Shown piece by piece: positions 19,288 to 64,000 of a stretch of 64,000 nucleotides of DNA. The stretch's first letter is position 1. Each line of letters opens with the position of its first letter. Where the stretch lies: the sequence record PP680570.1; one strand, written 5' to 3'. The notes under the pieces are model-generated. The model worked only from the letters and a program-made list of their open reading frames with translations. It ran no database searches and was not told the origin of the DNA. Both the position numbers and the translations under genes were made by a program. This stretch comes from Enterococcus phage VRE9_4.

Positions 19288-21159
19288 TTATTCTTTTACT
19301 TCGTCAGTTAATAAGAAATCAATAAATTCTTTATTAATAGGATTGTCTCCAGTCAAACGAAATTCAAAGGAACTATCTTCAAGAGGCTCCCATGAAAAAC
19401 CTAAAGAATCTAAAATAATTTTAGTTTTTAATTGAAATTCTTCTTCCCGATTTTCACATTTGAAAATATAATCCTTTAAAATTTTAAAGCAATCTTTTTT
19501 AGATGCACCTAATTCTTGATACTGTCTGAAAGTTTCATTCATTTTCCAAGCTTCATCAAGAATGTTTGGCAATTCCTGAGAAAAGATTTCTTTCCATTCA
19601 TCAGAATTAATATCTTCTTCATCCTCATGATATTTTCCATCAACTCTCCAAATAAAGCAGTCATGGATACAAGCAGTTGCTCCATCTGACAATTCTACAA
19701 CATCTTCTTGAAGAATATAACTATCAAGAGTTTCACACCATGCAGCATCAGAATTCAAGATATATTCCTCTAAATAATCTGAGTAAGTAGCATCTTTTGC
19801 ATAAACCCAAGAGTCTTCTTTAGATCCAATGGCATGAACAGCTTCTTCACTCCAAATATTTTGTCCTTCTTTAGTAGACCAAACGGTTTCTTCTCCACAA
19901 TATTCGCAAACATAGACGATATCTCCAAAAATATCTAATACTCGAATACCATAATCTTCATCAAAACGTTCTTCACAACATGGACAGATTGATCTTGAAC
20001 CATAGTAGCATTCTTCACAAAGACCTGAGGAACTTGCAGGATCATCTTTAGAGCCACATTCGAGACAAACAAAAGTACTTTGTGCATTAATTGGGATAGT
20101 TTTACCTTCTTCAGCTTGGAAAATAACCGGAGATCGTAAACCTCGAATTGCATCATTCCAGTTGAAAGCATCTACATAACCATATTCATTACAATCTGAA
20201 CCATTTCTCCAACGAAAACGAGTTAAATTTTCTTCAATTTGGTTAATTTTCGCATTACCTTCCCAACCTAATAAAGATAAAGTTGCATTACTAATCATAT
20301 TTTGCAACCCATTATTCAAACGAGGATATCCTTTTTGAGATAAAAGAACTGGAACAGTTTCTTCTTCATAGTCAACTTCAGAAACGAACATCATTTGACG
20401 CCATACTTTTGGAGCTAAATAACCAAATTCTTCTAAATCTTTTTCCATTACAGTAAAACCAACAAAAGCGTCTGGTCCAACCATATAACCTAGTGTACCA
20501 TTGTTGTATTCACCTTCGTCAGGATGCATACATGAACGCCAACTATTACCATAACTAATTAAGAATAAATCTTCTGGTCTGATAGATAGAACAATTTTTC
20601 GTCCATCAAAATTTGCTCCCGAAGCAAAACTAGCCATCTCCCCACCAATAATTTTATTTTTAATATCAGAAACAGCTTCTTTTACTCCTTTAACTGAAGA
20701 AATGTTCTGAGCAGTTAATACCGACATATCAACTAAAGAGTTTAAAACTTTAGTTAAACGTTGTCCATGGAAAGGTAACATTTTAAATTCATCTTTCATA
20801 ATTACCTTTTTATTTTCAACTCTAATTTTGTCTAAAGTATTACAAACCGATGTTTTAAAAACGTCAATGAAATTATAAGAAATATTCAAACCACGTAAAT
20901 CAGAATATAATTCATCTTCTACATAATTTTTCATTTCTTCAAATGAAAATTCTTCCATAAAATCTTTGAAATCTTTAGGATCTAAAACAATTCTTCCATT
21001 TGTTCCATCAAAGATTTTTTGTAGATAAGAGTTTTTCATTTCCATTCCTTTTGCGTAATAATCTAAATATTGTGAGTCAGATAATGAACCCCACTCATAA
21101 AATTCATTAAAGATTTCTTTTAAATTTGCTTTAACCTCTTCAACGTTATAATTTAGCAT
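19288..21159 (-). CDS. paralog family A member 3 (623 aa) with multiple C-terminal zinc ribbons
   Basis: Core SIRPEDLFLISYGNSWRSCMHP...PKVWRQMMFVSEVD...YP. Cys clusters CLECG...CEEC...CPCCEE...CEYCGEE. Confidence 0.65.
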   Translation of the reverse strand: MLNYNVEEVKANLKEIFNEFYEWGSLSDSQYLDYYAKGMEMKNSYLQKIFDGTNGRIVLDPKDFKDFMEEFSFEEMKNYVEDELYSDLRGLNISYNFIDVFKTSVCNTLDKIRVENKKVIMKDEFKMLPFHGQRLTKVLNSLVDMSVLTAQNISSVKGVKEAVSDIKNKIIGGEMASFASGANFDGRKIVLSIRPEDLFLISYGNSWRSCMHPDEGEYNNGTLGYMVGPDAFVGFTVMEKDLEEFGYLAPKVWRQMMFVSEVDYEEETVPVLLSQKGYPRLNNGLQNMISNATLSLLGWEGNAKINQIEENLTRFRWRNGSDCNEYGYVDAFNWNDAIRGLRSPVIFQAEEGKTIPINAQSTFVCLECGSKDDPASSSGLCEECYYGSRSICPCCEERFDEDYGIRVLDIFGDIVYVCEYCGEETVWSTKEGQNIWSEEAVHAIGSKEDSWVYAKDATYSDYLEEYILNSDAAWCETLDSYILQEDVVELSDGATACIHDCFIWRVDGKYHEDEEDINSDEWKEIFSQELPNILDEAWKMNETFRQYQELGASKKDCFKILKDYIFKCENREEEFQLKTKIILDSLGFSWEPLEDSSFEFRLTGDNPINKEFIDFLLTDEVKE

Positions 21160-37466: not shown

Positions 37467-37859
37467 ATGGAAAAACAAACTAAAGCAGATATGTATCGTA
37501 ACGCAGCAAAATTGTTGGAAGTAAATGCTCCTGAATATGCAGAAATGTTATTGGAAGATGCTCAAAGAATTGAAGCTCGTAACGCAAGTCGTCGGAATGT
37601 TGATACTAAAGTTCAAAAAGAAAATAAACACATCGCTGCTTTAGTAATTGAGTTTTTCCATAATGATGCTGAAAATGGAATCGCTTATGACAGTGGCGAA
37701 ATTGCAAATGCTGTTGGAATCGAAGTTTCTCCTCAGAAAATGTCAGCAATTATGCGTTTAGTTGGGGATGAAGTAGATAAGGTAAATCAAGCTACTAACA
37801 ATAAAGATCATATTGGATATAAAAAGAAAGGAACTGAATTAGTTTCTGATGAAAATTAG
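37467..37859 (+). CDS. small DNA-binding-like protein, family B (paralog of 53094..53483 and 58683..59096)
   Basis: Lys-rich centre and C-terminal VSPQKMSAIMRLVGDEV...IGYKKK shared with the two paralogs (TPQKMTPRLKGLVEEG; TPQKLTAIMKPLVDNE). Confidence 0.55.
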   Translation: MEKQTKADMYRNAAKLLEVNAPEYAEMLLEDAQRIEARNASRRNVDTKVQKENKHIAALVIEFFHNDAENGIAYDSGEIANAVGIEVSPQKMSAIMRLVGDEVDKVNQATNNKDHIGYKKKGTELVSDEN

Positions 37860-43743: not shown

Positions 43744-43762
43744 AAAAATCTAGTCTTTTTTA
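43738..43762. terminator. bidirectional rho-independent terminator
   Basis: GACTAG-AAAAAT-CTAGTC plus T6. Lies between convergent genes. Confidence 0.65.
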
Positions 43763-44445
43763 TTTTGCCAATATTCTTTTATACCTACATTAATTTCTTC
43801 TTCATCAGGAATGTAGATATCCCCAAAAACTTCTTCAATAGTTGGAAAATTACTTCTAATAATTTCATCTTTGACTTCAATTACAGCATATACTTTATAT
43901 TCTCCAAATTTACCTTTTTTCTTTTGACACGCTAATTTAACTAAACCCAATTTATCTAGTAAATCTAAAATAGAGTCCATAGCGTCATAAGCTGAACCTG
44001 AAGATTTTTTGCCCAATATTTCAGTAATTAAATAACGTTTAGTAAAGAAGAAAATTTTATTCTTATCTTGATAGTACCATTGCATTGCTCGAAGAAAAGA
44101 ATATATTGTGATAACATTATCTGTTTGTATTTGATATAGATATTTAAGTGTTTCTGGATGAATAGTAGTAAATAAATGTTTTATAGGAAGCTTCATTTTA
44201 TCATTTTCTTCCAAAATAAAACCATATTCTTTTAACTTATTAATTTGACGATTTATGGTTCGACTTGATACACACAATTCGTTCGCAGCCTCTTGACTAG
44301 AAAAGTCTTTTTTATTAATATATCTTGGCTCTCCCTTTTTCCCATTCCATTTAGAAATTACTTGTAAATACCCATATAATCTATCAATATTTCTTAAACT
44401 TGTAAAATCTTGTGTCGTTGGAATTTGATTTTTATGATTGTTCAA
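43750..44445 (-). CDS. HTH-domain DNA-binding regulator (231 aa), opposite strand to its neighbours
   Basis: Helix-turn-helix ELCVSSRTINRQINKLKEYGFI. TTG start after AAAGGAGG. Confidence 0.55.
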   Translation of the reverse strand: MNNHKNQIPTTQDFTSLRNIDRLYGYLQVISKWNGKKGEPRYINKKDFSSQEAANELCVSSRTINRQINKLKEYGFILEENDKMKLPIKHLFTTIHPETLKYLYQIQTDNVITIYSFLRAMQWYYQDKNKIFFFTKRYLITEILGKKSSGSAYDAMDSILDLLDKLGLVKLACQKKKGKFGEYKVYAVIEVKDEIIRSNFPTIEEVFGDIYIPDEEEINVGIKEYWQNKKD

Positions 44446-51677: not shown

Positions 51678-52252
51678 AGGTAAGGACCCCTTGTGGGTCT
51701 TTTTTTGTATTAGGCAGGATAATTTATCCTCTCTGTTTTATTATAACATTTTATACAGAAAAAATCAAGGGGTGCTGAGTTTTAGGAAAAAATCCTGGCT
51801 TTACGAGGCAAGCCTTTAACGGGGAAAAAATCTAGCGTGGTGGTCGACATTAGGCTGGGTTCCGGCCGTGCGCGGCCGGCCAAAAAATAACACCCCATTA
51901 TGAGAGAATTCTAATTTTCACAAATTAAAATAACAGTTTTGGGATTTTGGTTTTTTATTCATGTTATTGAATATTAATTCAAGAAGCTGAAAAGCCCGTC
52001 ATATCAACGTTTTGGGACGGTGTTATTTTATAAATTAAGTTTTTTCTGTTATTTTACGTTTTTTAAATAACAAGAGAATTTTAATTTTTCACAAACTATT
52101 ATTAAAAAATAACAAAAAAATTATTAGAAATCTCTAATTTTACAATTTTAAGAAAAATTTGATTTTCAGAAAATTTCATGAAAACTTTCAAAAATATTTT
52201 CATTTTCATAGATTAAAAAATAGTGAGATTTCTCTCACCATTTTCTCATTTA

Positions 52253-53093: not shown

Positions 53094-53483
53094 TTAAATA
53101 ATTTTGTAACCCACTTTTTTCTTGTCGCTTGTTGCGATTCCTTTTTCTAGGATTCCTTCTTCTACTAAACCTTTTAGGCGTGGGGTCATTTTTTGTGGAG
53201 TGTAGTCAAACTCTAAAGCTTCATTCACTTCTTGACTTGTGTAAAATGTTTCTGGATCAGCTTCTTCAAAGAACCATTCTTGAATTTTTTGCATGTCTGC
53301 GATTTTTTCTTTGTTTGTCTTGCTTTGGCTAGGTTTGCGGTTAGCGTTACGTTTTTGAGCTTGTTCGCCTTTTTCTACGACAAAATCAATAACTTCTTGC
53401 GGTGCTTTTACATTTGACAAGATACGAGCAACTTCTGCAAATTTTTCAGCTACGACTAGTTTTTCAAATTGTGTTTTTTCCAT
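53094..53483 (-). CDS. small DNA-binding-like protein, family B, copy 2
   Basis: ATG 53483 after AAAAAGGTGGAATTTATC. C-terminal TPQKMTPRLKGLVEEGILEKG...KKVGYKII. Confidence 0.55.
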   Translation of the reverse strand: MEKTQFEKLVVAEKFAEVARILSNVKAPQEVIDFVVEKGEQAQKRNANRKPSQSKTNKEKIADMQKIQEWFFEEADPETFYTSQEVNEALEFDYTPQKMTPRLKGLVEEGILEKGIATSDKKKVGYKII

Positions 53484-53765
53484 GATAAATTCCACCTTTT
53501 TAAAATTTTGTTAGTAAGTTGTTCCCTTACTACTCTTTAAGTATAAACGATTTTCAATTATTTTGCAAGTCTTTTTTTTGCTTTATTAGAAAATTCTCAT
53601 TTAAGCTTAAAGAGTAACAAGTGAACTTCCCTCTTAAGTATATCATACTTTTTTTAACTTTGCAAGTATAAAGTTTATTTATTTTTCAAAGAACTTTTTG
53701 CAATCTCTTTCCTTATCTCTAATACTATTATAGCAAACTTGAAAAGAGATTGCAAGCATAAAGTC

Positions 53766-54392
53766 TTAAATAATTTTGTCAATCGTGATTTTTTTGATTA
53801 GTGTTTCAAGTGTTTGTTTGGTTGGTTCGACTAGTAAACGATAATCAGCATGTTTGAATAAACCGAAATCGCTCGCAGTATCTCCCCACGCCTCTATATA
53901 ACTATATTCGTTTGTGTTTATGTTCCACTGAATGCAATCATCTTTTTGTGATTCTGAAAACATGCCCTTAACCTTTCCAGTGAAACGATCATCTGCTTTC
54001 AAATATTCAGTTGCATAGTATGAACAGCCCAAAAAGTCAGCTAAATGTTTAATTAGAAAATCGCTCGAACCTGTAACAAGAACAACTTCAAAGCCTTGTA
54101 AAATTTTTTCTTTTAAATCGTCCAACGTTTCATACCAATTTTTCCCATTTTCTAAAAATTGAGAAACAAACTCTTTTGCATGCATTTCTTTTTCTGTTTT
54201 CCCTGTTATCTCGTTGCGATAATTTTCGGCAACGGCAACAATCAGACTTTCATTTTTAACATCTTTTTTCCATGCTTTAAAAGAGCCATCATCTTTTATG
54301 ATTCCTTTTTCAATTAAAAAACCCGCATGAGATAAAACAACGCTTTTCCTTGTTAGTGTTCCATCTACATCTGTTAGAATTAAATTTTTCAT
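53766..54392 (-). CDS. HAD-superfamily hydrolase (phosphatase-like)
   Basis: Motif I LTDVDGTLT at the N-terminus. Later VLVTGSS and GD...SD motifs. Confidence 0.65.
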   Translation of the reverse strand: MKNLILTDVDGTLTRKSVVLSHAGFLIEKGIIKDDGSFKAWKKDVKNESLIVAVAENYRNEITGKTEKEMHAKEFVSQFLENGKNWYETLDDLKEKILQGFEVVLVTGSSDFLIKHLADFLGCSYYATEYLKADDRFTGKVKGMFSESQKDDCIQWNINTNEYSYIEAWGDTASDFGLFKHADYRLLVEPTKQTLETLIKKITIDKII

Positions 54393-55209
54393 TTCTTTCG
54401 TCCTCCCTTTATCTTATATACTTATTATAGGGGATAAACGATAAAAAGTAAAGCATTTTACACATTAAAATTATTAAAGTTTAATGAGAATTGTTTCTAA
54501 TTTACACACAATTCACCAGGCGTTATTTTATAATTAAATAACAGCTTTTCTTCGGACACATGTTATTTTATAAACCTGTAAGCGCTTACAAACTGCGTCA
54601 GATCAAGCTTTCAATAGATTTTCAGAAATTTTCATTGTTGTTTCAATAACAGGCAAAAAAATACATGTGAAATAATTCACAAACATAAAATAACACCCAA
54701 GAGCAGAAAAAATAACACACTTTGGCTCGTGCGCACATTCACATTCTCTTGCTCTCTTGGAATGAAAAGGCTGTGAAAGCTTGGTATAATAGGCTTCCTG
54801 GGTTGCGAAAAAATTCACATGCATGGACTTTTGGGATATTAAAATAACATTAAAAAACAATTAAATAACGAGCCAAAAACTTGACAGGGATAAAATAACA
54901 CAGTAAAATGGCGCTCGCCAGCGAGCGGCCGAAAAATAACGTCCTCTATTTGTTATTTTATTCATTTCACAAACTTTAGTTTCAGGATTCTGTTATTTTA
55001 TTTTTGAAAATCATTTTTCAATTTATGAAAATGAAAATGAAAGCTTGATACATCAAGGTTTTGGGAGCCTCGCCCCACAATGTTATTTTATCTTCTTCCT
55101 TTGGGGCTGTTATTTTATTTTATACATTTCATAAACTTTACTTTTAAAATAACACGTATTTCTTTGTGAAAAAATTCACAAGCAAAATTAAAAAAAGATG
55201 AGAAGAATC

Positions 55210-55467
55210 TCATCTTTCAAAAATACGCCCTAAATTATAATCAATGTTATAATTAAAATCTGAATAGTCATTAACAACATCAACAAAGTTGAAAAACTCA
55301 ACTACTATTTTTTCGGCTTCTTCTGGCTCTAAACAACCACTCATAATTTCATCATTCAAAATTAATAAATCTTCAATTTTTCGATATAACACTGAAAACT
55401 CATCTTTATCATATACCTCAACTAAAAAAATTTTTCCTGTAGGCATTTTTACAATTACGTTTCCCAT
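55210..55467 (-). CDS. hypothetical protein (85 aa)
   Basis: Own promoter TTGACT-17-TATACT and RBS on the minus strand (55470-55535). Confidence 0.5.
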   Translation of the reverse strand: MGNVIVKMPTGKIFLVEVYDKDEFSVLYRKIEDLLILNDEIMSGCLEPEEAEKIVVEFFNFVDVVNDYSDFNYNIDYNLGRIFER

Positions 55468-55536
55468 TTAATTCATTCCTTTCCTTTACTATATATATAG
55501 TATAACATATAAGTAAAAGGGAGTCAACCCTTTTAC

Positions 55537-55794
55537 TTAATTTTCTTGATTAAATTTTTCTAATCGTTTTAACAAAATTTTTCCATTTATTTTAGCTATT
55601 AATTTGCCAATTAAACTTTTTGACATAGATAAATTTTTAAATCTGAAATAATAGAAATCACTTCTATTTTCTCCTTTTCTAAATTCATAAGCCAGCTTAC
55701 CATTTAAAATTTGATTGTGGAGAAAAATCTTTACTTCTGGGAAACTCTCAATAATATAATAGTTACCATTGTTTACAAAAACATTCATTTGCAT
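55537..55794 (-). CDS. hypothetical protein (85 aa)
   Basis: Own consensus promoter. See promoter feature 55827..55855. Confidence 0.5.
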   Translation of the reverse strand: MQMNVFVNNGNYYIIESFPEVKIFLHNQILNGKLAYEFRKGENRSDFYYFRFKNLSMSKSLIGKLIAKINGKILLKRLEKFNQEN

Positions 55795-55826
55795 TTAATT
55801 CATTCCTTTCTTAACTTTCTATAATT

Positions 55827-55855
55827 ATTATATCAAGGAAAGGGCTGTTTGTCAA
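55827..55855 (-). promoter_or_regulatory. consensus sigma-A promoter TTGACA-17-TATAAT (minus strand), with the -35 inside a hairpin
   Basis: Minus strand reads AGGGTTGACAAACAGCCCT...TATAAT...AAAGGAATGAATTAAATG. Confidence 0.65.
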
Positions 55856-56154
55856 CCCTTTTCCTCAATTTCTTTGATAATTCTTTTTTCGTCCTCTGGT
55901 AACATTTGAATAACAGTCTTTACTACTATAGTTTTATCTGTTTCATTACAGACATATAAGCGAGAACCGAAAACCCACAATTTAAATTCATTCTCTTCAT
56001 TTTTTGGCGTTTTCTTCCTTACGTTCTTAATTTGAAAATCGTTAAGAATTGCCGAACGAACTTGTCTATTATTCATTTGTTCTTTAGCTACTCTTTCTAA
56101 GTAGCGCTCTTTGGCGTGTTGTGTGATAATAACTTTTTTAGTAAATAAAAGCAT
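55852..56154 (-). CDS. hypothetical protein (100 aa)
   Basis: Own promoter TTGACT-17-TATAAT at 56155-56212 (minus strand). Confidence 0.5.
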   Translation of the reverse strand: MLLFTKKVIITQHAKERYLERVAKEQMNNRQVRSAILNDFQIKNVRKKTPKNEENEFKLWVFGSRLYVCNETDKTIVVKTVIQMLPEDEKRIIKEIEEKG

Positions 56155-56212
56155 TTGTTACAACTCCTTTCTATATTCTTATTATATATTATAAGGGTTG
56201 AAAAGTCAACCC

Positions 56213-56593
56213 TCAACCCTCAAAAAACTTTTTAGTAATTTTTTCCTTTACATTAATTTTTTCAATTTTTTCTTTTGCAGAAAAATCTGTCACGTCAATA
56301 CTGTGGATTCTGTGCTTGTCATTGTCACTAATAAAATTATTCGACCCGAAAAAATTATATACTTCTGTTAATTCATCAGCTTCATTATCCTCAAAAAATT
56401 CGACTAGTTTATAATCATATTCATTTTGAATTTTCCGTTTTCTTTTTGCAACTAAAGAACCTTTATAATATAATTTAACAGTCATATTATTAGTTAATAA
56501 GTTAAATTTCCCAGTGTAAACACAAAGTTCGTCCACTCCAATTAGTTTTACTTTCTTTTCTTCAAATGTTTTAAAAATTTGCATTTCGTTCAC
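56213..56593 (-). CDS. hypothetical protein (126 aa)
   Basis: Own promoter at 56614..56642. Confidence 0.5.
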   Translation of the reverse strand: MNEMQIFKTFEEKKVKLIGVDELCVYTGKFNLLTNNMTVKLYYKGSLVAKRKRKIQNEYDYKLVEFFEDNEADELTEVYNFFGSNNFISDNDKHRIHSIDVTDFSAKEKIEKINVKEKITKKFFEG

Positions 56594-56613
56594 TCCTTAT
56601 TCTTTATATTATT

Positions 56614-56642
56614 ATTATAACAGGTGGTAAAGGGTTTGTCAA
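56614..56642 (-). promoter_or_regulatory. consensus sigma-A promoter TTGACA-17-TATAAT (minus strand)
   Basis: Minus strand reads GGTAAAGGGTTGACAAACCCTTTACC...TATAAT. Confidence 0.65.
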
Positions 56643-57046
56643 CCCTTTACCTTATATTTTTTAGGACTTCCGCCTAAGTCTTCCAGATATCCCTTTTCTT
56701 TCATTTTTTTCAATCTGCTAGGGGTCTGACGGTTTGTGTATTTATCAGCAACTAACAAATGAAAATCTTTATTTTGAAAATACTCTTTGCCACCGAAAGC
56801 AATTTTCACTACATTGTTAAATAAGTCGTCAATTTCATCTTCTGTAATTTTTGCCTTTGCATTTTTAGCTTTCTTGATTTCTTTTTGTTCTTTTTCAAAG
56901 TCTGTTTTCTTGTCACTTTCAAACTTATCAAACTCTCTTAACTCGATAGCTTCGGCAAGATTCAACTCTAATTTTTCAACCATTTCATCAATTAATTTCC
57001 AATCATGAGAAGTAATCTTTTCGCCGTTAGAAAATGTTTCTTGCAT
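56639..57046 (-). CDS. small DNA-binding-like protein (paralog of 21608..21976)
   Basis: ATG 57046 after AAAGGAAAGGAATGG. C-terminal TNRQTPSRLKKMKEKGYLEDLGGSPKKYKVKG. Confidence 0.55.
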   Translation of the reverse strand: MQETFSNGEKITSHDWKLIDEMVEKLELNLAEAIELREFDKFESDKKTDFEKEQKEIKKAKNAKAKITEDEIDDLFNNVVKIAFGGKEYFQNKDFHLLVADKYTNRQTPSRLKKMKEKGYLEDLGGSPKKYKVKG

Positions 57047-57107
57047 ATAACACCATTCCTTTCCTTTACTATATATATAGTATAACATGAAAACTTTTTT
57101 GTGTCAA

Positions 57108-57353
57108 CTATTTTTCACTTTTTTCCCAAAGATAATTATCGCATGCCACAAAAAGACTTTCTAAAAATTTTAAGGCTTCAAAAAAAGGTTTTTGCATATA
57201 GTTTTTATAAATAGGATTTTCGTCAAAAGGCGTTGCCCAATTAGAAACATAATAGACCAATCCTTCCCAATCAGCTTTACCATAAAAATCGCTAATTTGT
57301 TCATCTGTAGAATTTTCTAAAATGGTATTAATATCTTTTTTCATTTTATCCAT
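57108..57353 (-). CDS. hypothetical protein (81 aa)
   Basis: Own promoter TTGATT-17-TATAAT plus AAGGAGGGGA RBS. Confidence 0.5.
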   Translation of the reverse strand: MDKMKKDINTILENSTDEQISDFYGKADWEGLVYYVSNWATPFDENPIYKNYMQKPFFEALKFLESLFVACDNYLWEKSEK

Positions 57354-57579
57354 TTTCGTCCCCTCCTTAACTTTCTATAATAATTATAACAGATAAAACT
57401 AAAAAAATCAAATAATAAATACATGAGTTTTAGGATATTTTTTCTCATTAAACTTTTAGAAAAAATTTTGATTTTTTTCTTGATATAGACCTAATTTTGT
57501 GGTAAAATTTCCGCCCGAAAACGGCAAATTTGCTCACTATTTCACAAGAAAGCTAAATAAAAAAAGGCTTTTCAGCCTT

Positions 57580-57828
57580 TTAAAAATGATTGCCAAGTAT
57601 AGAATACAAACCTCCCCAGCCAATAAAGAAAATATACAAAATACCAAGAAAACCGCTCAAAGTGAAAAATTTACCAGATATAATAATAAAAATAAAATAT
57701 ATAATAGGTATAAAAAACATAGTACCAAACAAAACCGATGATACAATCCCCCAAAAAAATAAGCTTGCTCTTTCTTTGGACTTTCTTTTCTTTCTATTTC
57801 TGATTTCAATTCTATTCATTCTTATCAT
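57580..57828 (-). CDS. membrane protein (82 aa)
   Basis: Basic N-terminus followed by two transmembrane helices. Terminator hairpin at 57563-57584. Confidence 0.5.
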   Translation of the reverse strand: MIRMNRIEIRNRKKRKSKERASLFFWGIVSSVLFGTMFFIPIIYFIFIIISGKFFTLSGFLGILYIFFIGWGGLYSILGNHF

Positions 57829-57869
57829 TCCTTTCTATAGTTATATTATAGCAAATAAAAAGAGTTGTG

Positions 57870-58591
57870 TCAACTCTTTTTATTATTTAAATTTTCTTCG
57901 TTTACAATTCGCCACGCTTGAGGATTAATAGAATAAGCATGAATAGGAATTTCTTTTTCTTGACTTAATAGACAATGTAAAATTTTTGTTTCATCTATGC
58001 TATCCTGTAAAGCAGTATGCTCTTCAATGTAACCTGTATCATTAAACAAAAATTTGTAAGTTGCTTCTGCACCAGTTTGATAATTTCCTTTTTCTGTCAA
58101 AAGGTTGTGAGTTTTTGCGAACTCTTTATATTCTGGCGTATTTAATACAGTATAAGCGGCAACTGGATAAATATCAATCAAAAAGAAATTATCAAAGAAA
58201 TCAAAATCCTTCCCTGAAAAAAAGAAATGAGTTTTTGCAATTACACGAGTGTCAAAACCTAAGTTATAAGCACCAATGTAAGCAACATTATATTTTTTAC
58301 AGTCTTTTTTAAGTTGTCCGATAATGTTCGCCCACTTGCTAACAATGATTCTTTTTTCAAGTAATTTTGTAAAATATATTTTTCCATCAACTACATTTTC
58401 ATCAATCAAGAAAGCACGTTTTTTATTCAACGCTTGAAATTTGAATTGTTCTACCATGTAAGAACGTTCTACTAAAATATTTCCCTTTTTGTCTGAAATA
58501 GCCCAACCAATATCGAAAACTGATTGATAAGGCATTCCCTCGCCTTCTTTTGTTGTTTCAGTATCTAAAATCAAAAATGTTTCTTGCATGT
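57870..58591 (-). CDS. DEDDh 3'-5' exonuclease (DnaQ-like), copy 2
   Basis: Motifs LILDTETT, AYNLGFDT, HTALQDSI. ATG 58591 after AAAAGGTGGAAAATTAC. Confidence 0.7.
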
Positions 58592-58682
58592 AATTTTCCA
58601 CCTTTTCAATAAATTTATTTGTTCCTTAACTACTATTTAAGTATAACAAAAGGGCTTGAGCTTGTCAAGCCCTTTTACTAAC

Positions 58683-59096
58683 TTATTTCAATTTGTAAGC
58701 TACTTTTTTATCCTTTACAACTTTTTCAAATTCTTCATTATCAACTAATGGTTTCATGATTGCCGTCAATTTTTGAGGTGTAGCACCAACAAGCCCAATT
58801 AATTCAGAAATTTCGTGCAATGTTAAGGCTGTTTCTGGTTCTAAGTCAAGAAATGCTTTTCGTACTTTATCCATATTTTCGGCTTTTTCTTTTGCTGTTT
58901 TGCTTACGCCTTTTTTACCACGTTTTGCCTTGTCTTGTTTCACTTGTTGAGTGTGCATAGCTTTCAATTTGTCTAATAATTCAATATCAACTTTTTCAAA
59001 TAAGTCAGTATTTAAAAATGTTTTGTCCTCGATTGCTTTGCTTACTACTTTAACCGCTAATTCCAATGCTTGTGCTTTTGTAATTTGTTTTTCCAT
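58683..59096 (-). CDS. small DNA-binding-like protein, family B, copy 3
   Basis: ATG 59096 after an RBS/leader identical to copy 2 (CATGATAAATTCCACCTTTTTAAAAT on the plus strand). C-terminal TPQKLTAIMKPLVDNE...KKVAYKLK. Confidence 0.55.
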   Translation of the reverse strand: MEKQITKAQALELAVKVVSKAIEDKTFLNTDLFEKVDIELLDKLKAMHTQQVKQDKAKRGKKGVSKTAKEKAENMDKVRKAFLDLEPETALTLHEISELIGLVGATPQKLTAIMKPLVDNEEFEKVVKDKKVAYKLK

Positions 59097-59258
59097 GATA
59101 AATTCCACCTTTTTAAAATATTTTTTTGTAACAATTTCTTATTACATTCTTAGTATAAAACATTTTGATTTGTTTGTCAAGTGTTTTATACTAATTTCTA
59201 ACAAGAAATTTTTGTTGTTTTCTTTATACTCTTATTATAGAGTATTGAGAAAGGCTTG

Positions 59259-59462
59259 TCAAGCCTTTTCCCAATTTTCTTTTAAGAAAGTAACAACGCT
59301 ATAACTTGTAATAGTTGTTAAGGCAATAAGTAACAAGCTTTGAATAGAGAAGAAACCAGTGTACAAAATAGCTTGATAAGTAAAGTAGAATGGTACTAAG
59401 ATACCTCCAGCGACTAAAATTCCTACAAAAACAATTAATAATACTAATTCAGATAATTTCAT
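59259..59462 (-). CDS. small membrane protein (67 aa)
   Basis: Two transmembrane helices. Own promoter. Confidence 0.5.
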   Translation of the reverse strand: MKLSELVLLIVFVGILVAGGILVPFYFTYQAILYTGFFSIQSLLLIALTTITSYSVVTFLKENWEKA

Positions 59463-59535
59463 TTTAAAACTTCCTTTCCTTTTCTATATATTAAGTATAT
59501 CATTGTTAAAATGTTTTGTCAATACTTTTTGTTAA

Positions 59536-59699
59536 ATAATTTCAAATTTTCTATTTTTAAATTCTTCTTTGAAGTCTTGAACGGCTTGTTCATAAGTATC
59601 ACCTTCAACAAAAATTTCTTCAATTTTAGGATAACCACTATCCAAACTAATTTCATCTAAGAATTTAACAAGTAAAATATATTTATTCATTTTTTTCAT
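59536..59699 (-). CDS. small hypothetical protein (54 aa)
   Basis: ATG 59699 after GGAAAGGAATG. Promoter TTGACA-17-TATAAT at 59700-59760. Below the ORF-track cutoff. Confidence 0.4.
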
Positions 59700-60146
59700 T
59701 CCTTTCCTTATCTTGATTCTATTATAACACGACTTAATTCATCTGTCAACACTTTTATCATTTTATCAGCTTTTTCTTTTCGGTCAATTTCTTTTTCTCT
59801 TTGGTTCTTTCTAGCAATCAATTTCAATCTTAAATATTTATTTTTCATTTTAAATCGTTCCTTTCTATAATTCTATATTAGCAAACCTCAATGCTTTTGT
59901 CAAGCATTTTATTAAATTTATTTTTTTATTTTATTTTTTGTTCCCTCCTTAACTTTCTATAATTATTATAGCATAGACCAAGAGGAAAGACAATAATAAA
60001 ACACTGTAATTTTAATTAGAATTTTCTCATTTTGTATGAAAGATGTAAGCGCTTTCATTTTATGGTTTCCTCCCTGTTTGCGGGGCGTTCTCACCTCTCC
60101 TTATATTTATATTATAGCAGAAAAAAATAAGCCCGTCAAGGCTTAT

Positions 60147-60557
60147 TTATAAGTTTTTCCATTTTTTTCTTTGTTCTCGATAGGTTTTTGCTGTTTGCTC
60201 TTCAGTATCATGATGAGCAACCATGTTTGCGCCGATGTTAGTTCCTTGAATTGTTTTTGTTTGTTTGATTTGTGCTAATTCATCTAAGTTTTTTTGCGAG
60301 TATTTTTCAACAGTTTTATATAAACTAGCCTCATTTAAAATTTTAATAACTTTTTTTCGTTTTAAGAAGAAAGTTTTGTATTCTTCTTCCTCTAATCTGA
60401 TAAGCTGAATTATTAAATTATCATCAAACCAATCCAACCTTACCTTTAAAACATTATACCCAAAGCATTTTTCAGGACTTACCTCGATCAATTTTACATC
60501 GTCTTCTTTTTTATAATGATATTTTTTGATATATTCTAAATCATTCATTCTTGTCAC
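60147..60557 (-). CDS. hypothetical protein (136 aa)
   Basis: Promoter TTGACT-17-TATAAT plus AAGGAGTG RBS. Confidence 0.5.
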   Translation of the reverse strand: MTRMNDLEYIKKYHYKKEDDVKLIEVSPEKCFGYNVLKVRLDWFDDNLIIQLIRLEEEEYKTFFLKRKKVIKILNEASLYKTVEKYSQKNLDELAQIKQTKTIQGTNIGANMVAHHDTEEQTAKTYREQRKKWKNL

Positions 60558-60721
60558 TCCTTATTCTTTATATATTTATTATAGCATGAGTTTTGGGACA
60601 AGTCAACAGAAAAACGCCAAAATAAATAAAAAAAATTTTCTATGAAAGCGCTTTCATTTTATGGTTTCCTCCCCCCTTACAAGTTCAGTATAACAAAAAA
60701 ATAGGGGTTTGTCAACCCCTA

Positions 60722-61144
60722 TTACTTAAATTCATTATATAAATTTTCTAATTCAATTTCTTTCTTTTTCTGTTTCTCTCTATCTTCCACACAATAAAAC
60801 ATATCTCTTACAAAAGGTAAGTCAATCAATCTGAGATTTCCTTTTTTATATTCTGATAACATTAATAAATTTTCTTTTTCTGTATCTTCTTCCCACTTAT
60901 CTGTATAATGATATTTTTCAGAATAAAGGATTTCTACTTTCTTCTTTTTTGAAAATATTTTTTTCTTTTCTCTAAAATTCATTAGTGAGATTTTAAATAA
61001 TCCTGTTCTCCATTGAGAAATAAAGACATTTTCAATTATAAGAAATTTATATCCCTCTATCTCTTCATGTAATTCTACTATCGCAGTTTTTTCATCTAAT
61101 TTCTTGATATATTCTTTTTGTTCTACTGTAAGCATTTCATTCAC
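60722..61144 (-). CDS. hypothetical protein (140 aa)
   Basis: Own promoter and AAGGAGTG RBS. Confidence 0.5.
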   Translation of the reverse strand: MNEMLTVEQKEYIKKLDEKTAIVELHEEIEGYKFLIIENVFISQWRTGLFKISLMNFREKKKIFSKKKKVEILYSEKYHYTDKWEEDTEKENLLMLSEYKKGNLRLIDLPFVRDMFYCVEDREKQKKKEIELENLYNEFK

Positions 61145-61196
61145 TCCTTATTCTTTATATTATTATCATAACAGAAAGGGATAATCCTGTCAAGGA

Positions 61197-61523
61197 TTAT
61201 CTTCTTAAAATTTTTCCAACAAACACATCTTGTCTTATTTGTTCAGCTTGTTCAAGATATATTAATTCAAATGAATCTTTATAGATACGATGATTTTTTA
61301 TATCTAAAGTCTTTTTTGTTGAGAAAAAAGCATCTAAAGCATCTTTTGAAGCCTCTGTTATATCTTCATCATAGAAATCTCCTTTCAATTGTTCTTTTAT
61401 ATATTCTGCAAAATCTTTATAAAGCGTTGTAATTAAAAGATGATGATTGCGTAAACGTTTTTCAGTTCTTTCAACCTCTTTCTTCATTTCATTAATTTTT
61501 TCTTTCATTTCTTTTTCTAGCAT
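61197..61523 (-). CDS. hypothetical coiled-coil protein (108 aa)
   Basis: Own promoter and AAGGAGTG RBS. Confidence 0.5.
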   Translation of the reverse strand: MLEKEMKEKINEMKKEVERTEKRLRNHHLLITTLYKDFAEYIKEQLKGDFYDEDITEASKDALDAFFSTKKTLDIKNHRIYKDSFELIYLEQAEQIRQDVFVGKILRR

Positions 61524-61691
61524 ATTTAGTCACTCCTTATTCTTTATAATATAATTATATCATAGTTATAGGATAAGTCAATAGAAAAGCGCCAAAAAGT
61601 TTAAAAATTTTTTTCAGTGAAAGCGCTTACATTTCTTTCCTCTCTTGGTACAATATTATTATAGCACAAAAAAAGGACTTTTGCAAGTCCT

Positions 61692-62177
61692 TTATACTAA
61701 TTCTTTTCCGATTACACTTCTTTTTAATACGTCAATTTTTTCTTTCATTTCTTCACTATCTAAAAATTTATTCAAGTTTTCTTTATTAAAATTCTTAGAT
61801 AATTCAAGAGCCAAAATTTCGCTATCTGTCAATGGATAGTTATGATTGTTTATTCTTCCGCCAACTACTGAAAAGCATACCTGTTCGTTAGTATCGAAAT
61901 CTATTAAATATATATCTAAAATTGAAACTTGAAGCCATGAAATAGCAGAATCAGCGTTTCTTACAATTTTTTTAGAAACTTCTTGATTTGCTCGAAACAT
62001 TATTACATCAGTAACTCGATTATTTATTGTTGTTACTGTTGTTTTTTTATCCATTAATTTTGGGTCATGATTGTATATTCTTCTTCTATACCATGCCTCA
62101 CTAATACTATAACCAATCATAAACAACATAAGACCTATTAAGACAGCTAAACAAATACTACCAATAACTATTCTCAT
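61692..62177 (-). CDS. membrane-anchored protein (161 aa)
   Basis: N-terminal transmembrane helix MRIVIGSICLAVLIGLMLFMIGY. Confidence 0.5.
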   Translation of the reverse strand: MRIVIGSICLAVLIGLMLFMIGYSISEAWYRRRIYNHDPKLMDKKTTVTTINNRVTDVIMFRANQEVSKKIVRNADSAISWLQVSILDIYLIDFDTNEQVCFSVVGGRINNHNYPLTDSEILALELSKNFNKENLNKFLDSEEMKEKIDVLKRSVIGKELV

Positions 62178-62248
62178 TTTAAAATCATTCCTTTCTTTTA
62201 ACTATAATTAGTATAACATGGTTAGAGGTTGATGTCAACCCCTAACAT

Positions 62249-62608
62249 CTATCTTTTTCTTTCCCAGTAGTATTTTTCAAGAAAATCACAAAAATCTGTT
62301 TTTTCATCAATTTTCCATACTATTTTAATTTCATTCGTATTATTGAGCAAACAAATTCTTTCAGTTATAAAGCCGAGAAAGTCATGAAATTTATTTGTGT
62401 CACTTGCTCGCTGTTTATTTCTAAAGAACTTTTTGGGAAGTTCTACATAACTACATCTTTCAGGTAACCAGCTAGTATAAGCTTTTAAATATAAACTTTT
62501 TTTGTTTTCATTCCAAAACATTTCTTCATTATATTGTGACTTTGTTATTACTTGTATAGGATATTTCTCATTAGTTTTTAAATTAACTATTTCAATAATC
62601 TCTATCAT
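62249..62608 (-). CDS. hypothetical protein (119 aa)
   Basis: Own promoter: TGTCAACCCC hairpin at about 62225. Confidence 0.5.
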   Translation of the reverse strand: MIEIIEIVNLKTNEKYPIQVITKSQYNEEMFWNENKKSLYLKAYTSWLPERCSYVELPKKFFRNKQRASDTNKFHDFLGFITERICLLNNTNEIKIVWKIDEKTDFCDFLEKYYWERKR

Positions 62609-62659
62609 ATATTATCATTCCTTTCTATATATCTAATATACCATAGTTTCGGGGTGGTG

Positions 62660-62896
62660 TCAATAAATATTTTCATTTAACCATTTAATAAAATCATTAT
62701 ACACTTGATGAATGTCAAATCTATTTTGGAATTGCATATTAAAATCATATTTATTTCGTAACCATTCACTAAGTGCATAGCTATCAACTAAAGGGCTAGT
62801 AAGCTCTTTCTTATATTTAGATAGGTACTTTCGTTCTAGTTCATATTCTAAAGCAAATTCTAAAATCTCGATAGCTTCAAGAGTTTCATTATTCAT
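62660..62896 (-). CDS. hypothetical protein (78 aa)
   Basis: Last gene before the repeat-rich non-coding end of the window. Confidence 0.5.
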   Translation of the reverse strand: MNNETLEAIEILEFALEYELERKYLSKYKKELTSPLVDSYALSEWLRNKYDFNMQFQNRFDIHQVYNDFIKWLNENIY

Positions 62897-63303
62897 TTTG
62901 AATACCTCTTTTCAATAGGTTTTAGGGCTATTCATCTAACCCCTATAAATAGTATAATATATAAAACCCTAATTGTCAAATGATTTTTAACATTAGACAA
63001 AATATTTTTATATACATTATGTATGTATATATGCATTCGATAACAGATGTTATTTTAATAGACTATCGAGAGATGTAAGCGCTTACAAAAGATTTACTTA
63101 AACAGATGAATTGAAAGCGCTTTATTTTACGTTTTAAGAGCTTTTCATATTATTTGGCATAATTATCTATTAAGCATTATAAAACCCAAGAGAAGAGCAA
63201 AGAAGTGTATTGTGGGCGCTATTATTAACTTTTATTAAGGTGTTAGAATAAATAGTCTTATATAAAATAACACTTATCAGTTATTATAACAAGTGTTATG
63301 TTT

Positions 63304-63527
63304 GGTGGCAGAGATGTGATGAGCTAATACATTGTGAAACATTTCACACATGTACAATCATTCATATAATAATTTATTCATATGTATGAATGAACAGATG
63401 TACATATATTCATATGTGGCAGAGATGTGATGAGCTAATACATTGTGAAACATTTCACACATGTACAATCATTCATATAATAATTTATTCATATGTATGA
63501 ATGAACAGATGTACATATATTCATATG
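63304..63527. repeat. 111-bp tandem direct repeat (2 near-identical units) with degenerate additional units downstream
   Basis: Units start GTGGCAGAGATGTGATGAGC at 63304 and 63415 and are identical through ...TTCATATG. Partial copies begin at about 63767 and 63877. Confidence 0.8.
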
Positions 63528-64000
63528 TACTCACTGCCAGTCTGTGAGCATTGTCACAGATGTAAGCGCTTACAACTCATTGACGCAAGGTGTCAAGCAA
63601 AGATACTTGGCGCACATATGTTCGGCTAGCTCCCAGCAACTTGATGAATAACAAAGGTTATTTAATTTTATAGTTCGGCATTTAAAATAACAAGTGTTAT
63701 TTAAACATACTTAAATACTTGAACAGATGTACATATGAACATATATTCATATATTGTGGCAGTAGGTACAGATGGACTAGACCAATCGTAACCCTAAACG
63801 ATTGTGAAATATTTCACAAGGATTCCACTCAACGTTAGAAATTAGTTGATATTATTAAATAACAAGTGTTATTTATGGTGGCAGCAACATAGACGAGTGT
63901 TATTTAATTAATAAGGGAGTTAGTGGTAAGGGATGCAGAGGTCGTTATTTAATTAGGTCAATAAGTTTTTACAATAGTAATAAAAGGCTTGTTATCATTA

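Follow-up and report, generated by a model that had tools for sequence, protein, structure and literature searches.

Palindromes matching CcpA and Rex operator consensuses among the early genes of Enterococcus phage VRE9_4

What protein reads the short palindromes that recur between the early genes of Enterococcus phage VRE9_4? The DNA examined was a stretch of 64,000 nucleotides from sequence record PP680570.1, referred to here as the window and numbered from its first base; toward its right end a 14-bp palindrome is repeated between 54577 and 63574 and is accompanied by a second palindrome family. An earlier, sequence-only reading of the window had taken the two families as spacing variants of one half-site, and had proposed phage proteins as their cognates, i.e., three winged-helix-like paralogs (family B) or a 231-aa helix-turn-helix (HTH) protein. 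We find instead two different operators, the flanks of which fit the catabolite responsive element (cre) in one case and the Rex operator in the other. CcpA is a host global regulator of the LacI/GalR family that binds cre as a dimer with HPr-Ser46-P at high glycolytic flux; Rex is a redox repressor that binds when NADH/NAD+ is low, and Vesic and Kristich reportedly described a Rex of Enterococcus faecalis in 2013. Because both motifs equal consensus operators of host global regulators, host CcpA and Rex appear to be better candidates than the phage proteins, and we consider it probable that the palindromes are host CcpA and Rex operators, which would couple early transcription to the carbon and redox state of the host.

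Identity of the two palindromes

Exact matches to TGWAAGCGCTTWCA were found in the window at 54577, 60044, 60643, 61618, 63074 and 63561 and none was found in 100 dinucleotide-preserving shuffles, which bore out the enrichment over shuffled sequence that had been anticipated. When two mismatches were allowed one extra site was obtained, 63112-63125 (TGAAAGCGCTTTAT); the AAGCGCTT core occurs 7 times in 64 kb, where 0.5 would be expected, and all 7 occurrences are these sites. The coordinates given in the sequence-only reading for the seven copies were right, but only four of them are perfect palindromes (54577, 63074, 63561 and 60643); two (60044 and 61618) depart from symmetry at positions 3 and 12, and one is half-degenerate, as that reading had also noted. 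All of the sites lie between minus-strand open reading frames (ORFs) and their equivalents in the curated annotation of phage H1 fall between coding sequences (CDSs), in agreement with their earlier description as non-coding.

Taken with its flanks a site reads (A/T)TG(T/A)AAGCGCTT(A/T)CA(A/T), and the family as a whole ATGWAAGCGCTTWCAW, with a central CG that fits the cre, or LacI-GalR, type of operator. Published cre consensuses include WTGNAANCGNWNNCW and the E. faecalis-derived WTGWAARCGYWWWCW (PMC2941500), and a 16-mer, WTGNNARCGNWWWCAW (PMC8262876). All six exact sites match both of the 15-mers and 4 of the 6 match the 16-mer, where the counts expected by chance are 0.06 for WTGWAARCGYWWWCW, 0.69 for WTGNAANCGNWNNCW and 0.16 for WTGNNARCGNWWWCAW; the family falls within the cre consensuses of 14-16 bp with a central CG, of which the 14-mer is TGWAANCGNTNWCA. 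The loosest cre consensus gave nothing beyond these sites in the window, and a loose consensus applied to the whole genome of phage VRE9_1 (140,269 bp) matched in five places only, all at 122.8-131.8 kb. The phage sites share with host cre sites the consensus identity over 15-16 bp, the central CG, and degeneracy only at the W, R and Y positions; they differ in lying in a phage genome rather than in carbohydrate-catabolism operons, and in being far more uniform and closer to consensus. They are also dense, with 6 in 9 kb versus 34 intergenic matches in the whole E. faecalis V583 genome (PMC2941500).

Bases 54000-64000 of the window share 94% identity with six Enterococcus phage genomes of ~140 kb (VRE9_1, VRE9_2, VRE9_3, H1, EF1 and EF5), and one contig of the IMG/VR collection is also a close relative. 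Changes seen in this clade within the 14-mers were at the W positions 3 and 12, the sole exception being a C-to-G in EF1; the 54577 site is kept in 5 of 6 genomes and reads TGTAAGCGCTTAGA in EF1, and the sites at 63074, 63112 and 63561 are invariant in the six genomes. In the right-hand of the two non-coding regions described below (hub B) 0 of 42 cre columns varied versus 13.2% of background columns, and in the left-hand one (hub A) 1 of 14 varied versus 33%. Conservation in related phages, suggested earlier as a check, is thus cleaner than background, and purifying selection on the cre sites is supported by these alignments. The view of the palindromes as operator-like sites for dimeric DNA-binding regulators was upheld by their location in non-coding control DNA, by their frequency far above chance and by this apparent selection.

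The second family, GTGAAAYATTTCAC, is present at 63334, 63445 and 63804 as had been reported, but the first two are one duplicated site, and boxes at 54665, 54803 and 55164 had been overlooked. With two more bases on each side the family reads TTGTGAA-N4-TTCACAA; the Rex operator of Staphylococcus aureus is TTGTGAAW4TTCACAA (PMC2883068), and the Rex operator is highly conserved among Gram-positive bacteria (PMC6018154). The window holds 2 perfect Rex boxes (55164 and 63802), 3 with one mismatch (54665, 63332 and 63443) and 1 with two (54803), i.e., 6 against 0.85 expected; all are in the two hubs and all have A/T-rich spacers. A further perfect box lies just beyond the window end (19650-19667 of the VRE9_1 locus L001). 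VRE9_1 has five Rex boxes with one mismatch or less, all in the same two non-coding regions and none in the other 112.7 kb of its genome; cre and Rex sites together are restricted to 122.8-132.4 kb of VRE9_1, neither occurring in the remainder.

At the 55164 box the arms are kept in relatives and the 4-bp spacer varies (AAAA, ATTT or AAAT). The phage boxes resemble known Rex operators in forming an inverted repeat of 18 bp around an AT-rich spacer of 4 bp and in conserving their arms while the spacer drifts, and the overlap of one box with a promoter-like -35 may be a further likeness; they differ in being on phage DNA with no fermentation or respiration gene downstream. No report of Rex boxes in phages turned up in our literature searches, none of which was aimed at that question.

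Control scans were run for other host regulators. The ARG-box was not enriched, nor was the CodY-box to a significant degree in the window (9 versus 4.2 expected), and in the unrelated Enterococcus phage EFDG1 (Herelleviridae) the first 50 kb held cre matches at chance level and no Rex box. Two individual CodY-box-like sequences were seen, GATTTTCAGAAATTT with 2 mismatches at 54617-54631, 26 bp from the hub A cre, and GATTTTCAGAAAATT with 1 mismatch at 52161-52175.

Promoters, leaders and non-coding hubs

The minus strand carries the genes from ~52 to 63 kb, and between 54000 and 63000 it has ~20 near-consensus sigma-A-type promoters, roughly one per small gene (these promoters, and all others named here, are predictions from sequence). 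Many have their -35 TTGACA within the loop of the intrinsic terminator of the upstream gene (e.g., 60723-60700, 60148-60125 and 61693-61672). Because of these ~20 promoters we infer that the region is an early array transcribed by host RNA polymerase; the phage's own sigma factor is encoded just past the window end. In the H1 annotation about 30% of the equivalent region is non-coding, as calculated from summed CDS lengths. Both palindrome motifs are found only in the part of the genome with near-consensus host sigma-A promoters, i.e., the early array and the two hubs.

Three of the cre sites are within leaders of the array, each downstream of one predicted promoter (P1) and upstream of the -35 of a second (P2), an arrangement that may compare with that of host cre sites at sigma-A promoters. 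On the minus strand, ATGAAAGCGCTTACAT (60044-60057) is centred at about +53.5 from its P1 (60139-60111) and about -92 from its P2 (59993-59965); ATGAAAGCGCTTTCAT (60643-60656) at +30.5 from P1 (60715-60687), the -35 of which is inside a terminator loop, and at -78.5 from P2 (60606-60578); and ATGTAAGCGCTTTCA (61618-61631) at about +27 from P1 (61686-61658) and -77.5 from P2 (61581-61554). The leader centres thus span +27 to +53.5 relative to P1. A cre upstream of a -35 is regarded as activating (PMC9784791), which would be the position of the leader sites relative to P2, and their position downstream of P1 would be that of a roadblock or repressing site. Since the leader sites lie downstream of P1 and upstream of the P2 -35, CcpA would be expected in sugar-replete cells to block P1 and read-through transcripts and to move transcription toward P2.

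The 60044, 60643 and 61618 sites share a repeated intergenic cassette and are not independent occurrences; the four other sites are outside the cassette and in unrelated contexts. Genomes of the clade have 2 or 3 copies of the cassette, with recombination joints at it. The joint in VRE9_1 (15783 of L001) combines the upstream flank of the window 60643 site with the downstream flank of the 60044 site, and VRE9_1 is without gene 60147-60557. For the genes flanking the leader sites (60147-60557, 60722-61144 and 61197-61523) no known domain or family, and no paralogy, was detected.

On the minus strand each of the palindromes at 60044, 60643 and 61618 is headed directly by an ATG, and a purine-rich Shine-Dalgarno-like tract precedes the ATG of each. 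The resulting ORFs have 30 codons (60058-59966, opened by the ATG at 60058-60056), 5 codons (MKALS, 60657-60640) and 0 codons (ATG TAA, 61632-61627), the last of these, a start-stop pair, being kept in all six genomes. The overlap of the palindromes with start codons, as noted earlier, is real at the three sites, but is largely explained by the extended cre consensus, which begins A-TG; A stands at the 5' extended position in 66 of 76 cre sites from other phage contigs (see below). A role for a mini-ORF peptide was rejected, given ORFs of 0, 5 or 30 codons and an ATG that is part of the extended consensus. The purine-rich tract might serve to stabilise the 5' end of the mRNA, as such elements do in SP82 and cryIIIA. 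A role at the level of RNA was also tried and rejected: folds of the six site contexts were no better than those of shuffles (z +0.3 to -1.8), and the sole Rfam match (E 0.97) was located elsewhere.

The remaining sites are in two hubs, stretches of 0.8-1.3 kb of AT-rich non-coding DNA with several repeat families. Hub A (~54393-55210), which has no CDS in H1 or EF1, contains a single cre and three Rex-type boxes, and a third motif, AAATAACA/TGTTATTT, occurs in it 11 times. Its cre is a TGTAAGCGCTTACA palindrome at 54577-54590, upstream of a HAD-hydrolase gene (53766-54392, minus strand), and matches both WTGWAARCGYWWWCW and WTGNAANCGNWNNCW. Its Rex-type boxes are ATGTGAAATAATTCACAA at 54665-54682, with one mismatch; TTGCGAAAAAATTCACAT at 54803-54820, with two mismatches (one in VRE9_1, H1, EF1 and VRE9_3); and the perfect TTGTGAAAAAATTCACAA at 55164-55181, just downstream on the minus strand of the terminator of gene 55210-55467.

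Hub B (~63037-64000, running ~300 bp past the window end) separates the leftward early array from the divergent genes that run rightward (tail-fibre-like, sigma factor, PhoH and terminase), and holds 3 cre-type sites, three or four Rex boxes and AAATAACA motifs. Two of its cre sites are TGTAAGCGCTTACA palindromes, at 63074-63087 (centred -136.5 from the first leftward early promoter, 62979-62951) and at 63561-63574; the half-degenerate cre-like site 63112-63125 is 38 bp from the first of these. The Rex box TTGTGAAACATTTCACAC at 63332-63349, with one mismatch, shares bases with the -35 (TTCACA) of a promoter-like site on the plus strand, 63343-63370 (TTCACA-16-TATAAT). A perfect tandem duplication of 2 x 111 bp (63305-63415 and 63416-63526) doubles both this box and the overlapping promoter-like site, giving the copy at 63443-63460, which also overlaps a promoter-like -35. 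The 111-bp unit is single-copy in VRE9_1, VRE9_3, H1, EF1 and the IMG/VR relative, the duplication being specific to this genome. The perfect box TTGTGAAATATTTCACAA is at 63802-63819. No convincing promoter was found near Rex boxes other than those at 63332 and 63443.

The third motif often forms a palindrome, AATAACA(A/G)(G/A)TGTTATT. Its copies in the window number 27 (10.3 expected overall), 24 of which are in three non-coding zones, 51885-52114, 54536-55154 and 63048-63905; in VRE9_1 27 of 40 copies are in the hubs and the strand-switch zone (51.9-52.1 kb in the window). No host regulator consensus was recognised in this motif, which may be an operator or iteron read by a protein of the phage. 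As to short sequences in the window at large, CGCG, GGCC and CCGG are strongly depleted (4, 10 and 8, versus 34.7 expected from base composition) and GCGC is not, which suggests avoidance of particular restriction sites.

Known and putative operators for host regulators in other phages

The VRE9_4 clade is part of a wide assemblage of large Bacillota siphophages, and a block of sigma-factor, PhoH, terminase and portal genes is common to the clade, Geobacillus phage E3, and Tsamsa- and SPbeta-like phages. The IMG/VR collection was scanned for TGTAAGCGCTTACA, and the figures given here cover the matches listed. Among these were many single sites, as chance predicts, together with low-GC contigs bearing dense clusters, e.g., contig L020 with 18 sites in 3.4 kb, L086 with 17 in 2.8 kb and L066 with 16 in 4 kb. 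In these three uncultured phage contigs clusters of cre pairs were found (L066, 240-4134; L086, 647-2710; L020, 5080-8404), and in three others head-to-tail arrays with a period of 24-28 bp (L063, 3605-3738, 6 x 24 bp; L092, 421-515, 4 x 27 bp; L096, 848-1168, ~13 units).

Four of these contigs (L066, L092, L096 and L020) are distant relatives of VRE9_4, with 28-42% amino-acid identity in the terminase-small-like and neighbouring genes and an identical order of shared PHROGs; the arrays are found a few kb upstream of these genes, so that 5-18 cre sites stand at the position equivalent to hub B. No similarity between L063 and this phage was detected. When 76 sites from seven cre-dense contigs (the four distant relatives among them) were summed, positions 3, 6, 9 and 12 were W in 75/76, R in 70/76, Y in 76/76 and W in 76/76, the 5' flanking base was A in 87% and the 3' base T in 76%, giving the pattern ATGWAARCGYTTWCAT.

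The cre centres in L066, L086 and L020 fall at -54.5 (nine promoters) and at -64.5 to -67.5 upstream of TTGAC(A/T)-17-TATAAT, often with a second cre near -86.5 to -90.5. The pairs in these contigs are often 32-36 bp apart centre-to-centre, with a GC-rich CCGG-containing spacer (e.g., TGAAAACGTTTTCAtaaaaatcgcgcccggtccgaaTGAAAGCGCTTACA) and the promoter-proximal site at -54.5. In the CcpA-activated Bacillus subtilis genes ackA, pta and ilvB the cre centres lie near -56, -55 and -88. In the distant relatives CcpA would look like a classical upstream activator. The dense cre arrays of uncultured low-GC phage contigs, whether in the -54.5 register or in tandem, suggest that phages may have come to exploit CcpA repeatedly.

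Isolate phages gave no match in BLAST searches with the cre pair and with the tandem arrays, possibly owing to low-complexity masking, and for L020 and L066 such searches returned no informative relatives among isolates. Phage Phass-1 (OQ749652.1, L132) is a distant human-gut relative from the 'code 15' (TAG-recoded) clade. In the cre-dense relatives L066 and L092 the ORFs look fragmented under translation table 11, with a portal homologue of only 270 aa, and some cre-dense relatives may also be recoded.

The use of host global regulators by phages is already known; a lytic early array with multiple cre sites was not found described in the literature searched. The lytic Bacillus phages phi29 and Nf carry Spo0A boxes, which in phi29 also affect replication (PMC2731898); operators of a host global regulator there likewise lie near early promoters of a lytic phage and tie development to host state, but the signal is the sporulation phosphorelay, the phage is a small protein-primed podovirus, and binding and effects were demonstrated by experiment. 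CcpA binds a cre at the cI promoter of the S. aureus prophage PhiSa3XN (PMC12607152). Here too host CcpA acts at a cre in a phage regulatory region, with glucose-dependent phage behaviour; PhiSa3XN differs in being temperate and in having a single degenerate cre (ATGAAAATTTCGTATA) at the lysogeny switch, whereas VRE9_4 has multiple perfect cre sites in an early array, Rex boxes as well, and no annotated integrase (as judged by VRE9_1, among the annotated products of which there is none). In alphaproteobacterial phages CtrA-binding sites (PMC9437464) similarly place host transcription-factor sites in phage promoters and time the lytic programme to host state, with other regulators, hosts and signals. 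The literature that could be searched, from which subscription journals were mostly missing and in which a negative is weak, yielded no multiple consensus cre in a lytic phage early array, no cre arrays in phages, no paper with the exact 14-mer, and none joining catabolite responsive element, phage genome and CcpA. Further instances of host regulator sites in phage DNA are known from cyanophages, which carry NtcA and PhoB boxes, and from temperate phages, which carry LexA boxes.

Candidate readers of the sites and what their binding would mean

The motif identity, the confinement of both motifs within the genome, their conservation and the lack of a phage LacI-like protein are direct results. 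A query of the N-terminus of B. subtilis CcpA matched E. faecalis DNA with 75.5% identity over residues 4-150, in a phage-labelled record contaminated with host sequence, as expected of a host CcpA with a conserved DNA-binding domain; the CcpA of E. faecalis is discussed in PMC8924694. Some phage-labelled records (e.g., OR846607.1 and OR846605.1, under labels such as Enterococcus phage Efs 1-1-1 and Listeria phage LM 4-x) hold host chromosomal DNA including ccpA, which is host contamination and not a phage gene; OR846607.1 had one loose cre match only, which is uninformative. When the same CcpA N-terminus was run by tblastn against the window, the whole of VRE9_1 and 125 other loci the best E value was 0.99, and no LacI-type product is among the VRE9_1 annotations; an operator for a phage LacI-type repressor was on these grounds rejected.

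Several observations weigh against host CcpA and Rex as the readers of the sites. The geometry in the window is non-canonical, with centres at -77.5/-78.5, about -92 and -136.5 and not at about -55, and most hub sites have no convincing adjacent promoter. The AAGCGCTT core is invariant throughout the clade, whereas host cre sites are heterogeneous; such uniformity could come from a different and more stringent protein, or from recent copying of the cassette. The phage encodes several winged-helix proteins of unassigned specificity. Geobacillus phage E3 and Phass-1 have no cre in the syntenic region sampled (MT836163 was likewise negative in the region sampled), and comparative depth within the clade is shallow at ~94% identity.

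A phage-encoded dimeric regulator with cre/Rex-like specificity is the first alternative, and we regard it as unlikely. The sequence-only reading had named family B or the 231-aa protein as such a regulator, and nothing was found that links either of them to the motifs. By our own identification family B comprises the genes at 53094-53495 (minus strand), 58683-59108 (minus strand) and 37467-37859 (plus strand); they are real paralogs of ~130-140 aa with 32-38% identity, predicted to be helical in their N-terminal part and, with confidence, to form a winged helix at the C-terminus. The nearest solved folds are of the MarR family, a match that is generic and weak (E about 2e-3, TM about 0.4). 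The 231-aa protein (43750-44445) is also a winged-helix protein, ScpB-like or replication-initiator-like (phrog_3396, E 3.6e-71), and a small XRE-type repressor is annotated in VRE9_1. The uniformity of the core would suit a stringent reader of this kind. Such a protein would nevertheless require that two unrelated motifs each agree, wherever a base is specified, with the consensus of a separate host global regulator; no LacI-type HTH is encoded by the phage; no homologue of family B or of the ScpB-like protein turned up in the cre-dense loci of the distant relatives, within the part of those loci that the contigs cover; and the third motif, AAATAACA, is available as a natural target for phage proteins.

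It is likewise unlikely that the sites bind host CcpA and Rex for titration, the replicating phage DNA serving as a sponge that de-represses the CcpA and Rex regulons. Perfect-consensus sites, presumably of maximal affinity, would suit such a role, as would the distance of several of them from any promoter and the head-to-tail arrays of other phages that leave no room for promoters (L092, L096, and L063, the relatedness of which was not detected). This genome, however, has only 6-7 cre and 5-6 Rex sites, three of the cre sites hold a conserved and precise position between tandem promoters, and the fixed -54.5 register in L066, L086 and L020 points to promoter control. Were the phage DNA, against these odds, a high-affinity decoy that soaks up CcpA (and in the Enterococcus clade Rex too) and lifts catabolite and redox repression, it would be a protein-free, DNA-encoded device for host takeover, with the infected cell burning every available substrate for phage production; this would apply still more to the uncultured relatives, in which as many as 13-18 consensus cre sites stand in tandem arrays.

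We think it quite improbable that the hubs are replication origins or packaging regions in which the palindromes are structural or iteron elements independent of transcription. The hubs are AT-rich and non-coding with several repeat families, a ScpB-like or replication-initiator-like protein is encoded, and the Spo0A boxes of phi29 offer a precedent for an effect on replication, but the exact identity with the cre and Rex consensuses, and the three leader sites inside the promoter array, would be left unexplained. Least probable of all is an RNA-level action, a restriction-modification or recombination site, or a by-product of cassette duplication, toward which the position of three sites in 5' leaders after a Shine-Dalgarno-like tract and ATG, the recombination of cassette copies and the AGCGCT within the core might point, and which is already largely refuted by the folds, the Rfam result, conservation, the brevity of mini-ORFs whose conserved form is ATG TAA, the four sites outside the cassette, and a GCGC frequency (34 versus 34.7 expected) that indicates neither avoidance nor selection, by which a restriction site was rejected.

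Returning to host CcpA and Rex, we infer that they bind, and with this the direction in which they would regulate and what the phage would gain. After DNA entry the host proteins would occupy the sites, and early transcription would come to depend on the carbon and redox state of the cell; processes controlled from the hubs, e.g., rightward transcription or replication, would possibly be state-dependent too. An effect of hub sites on replication is possible by analogy with Spo0A in phi29, and some titration of the regulators by hub sites is possible as well and is favoured by the tandem arrays of the relatives. The phage would thus probably read or manipulate the energy state of its host rather than use a regulator of its own.

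Exploitation of CcpA by phages was found described, in the limited literature searched, for one temperate prophage only. If host CcpA and Rex bind these sites, the earliest transcription of a large lytic phage that infects vancomycin-resistant enterococci is tied to two independent indicators of host metabolism, glycolytic flux and NADH/NAD+, and there would be a concrete mechanism by which carbon source and host physiology affect phage infection. Pressure from other phages has been accompanied in E. faecalis by mutations in ccpA and ptsP (PMC8924694), and the CcpA link may bear on these. It would also be relevant to phage therapy in the gut, an environment of variable sugar and oxygen supply.

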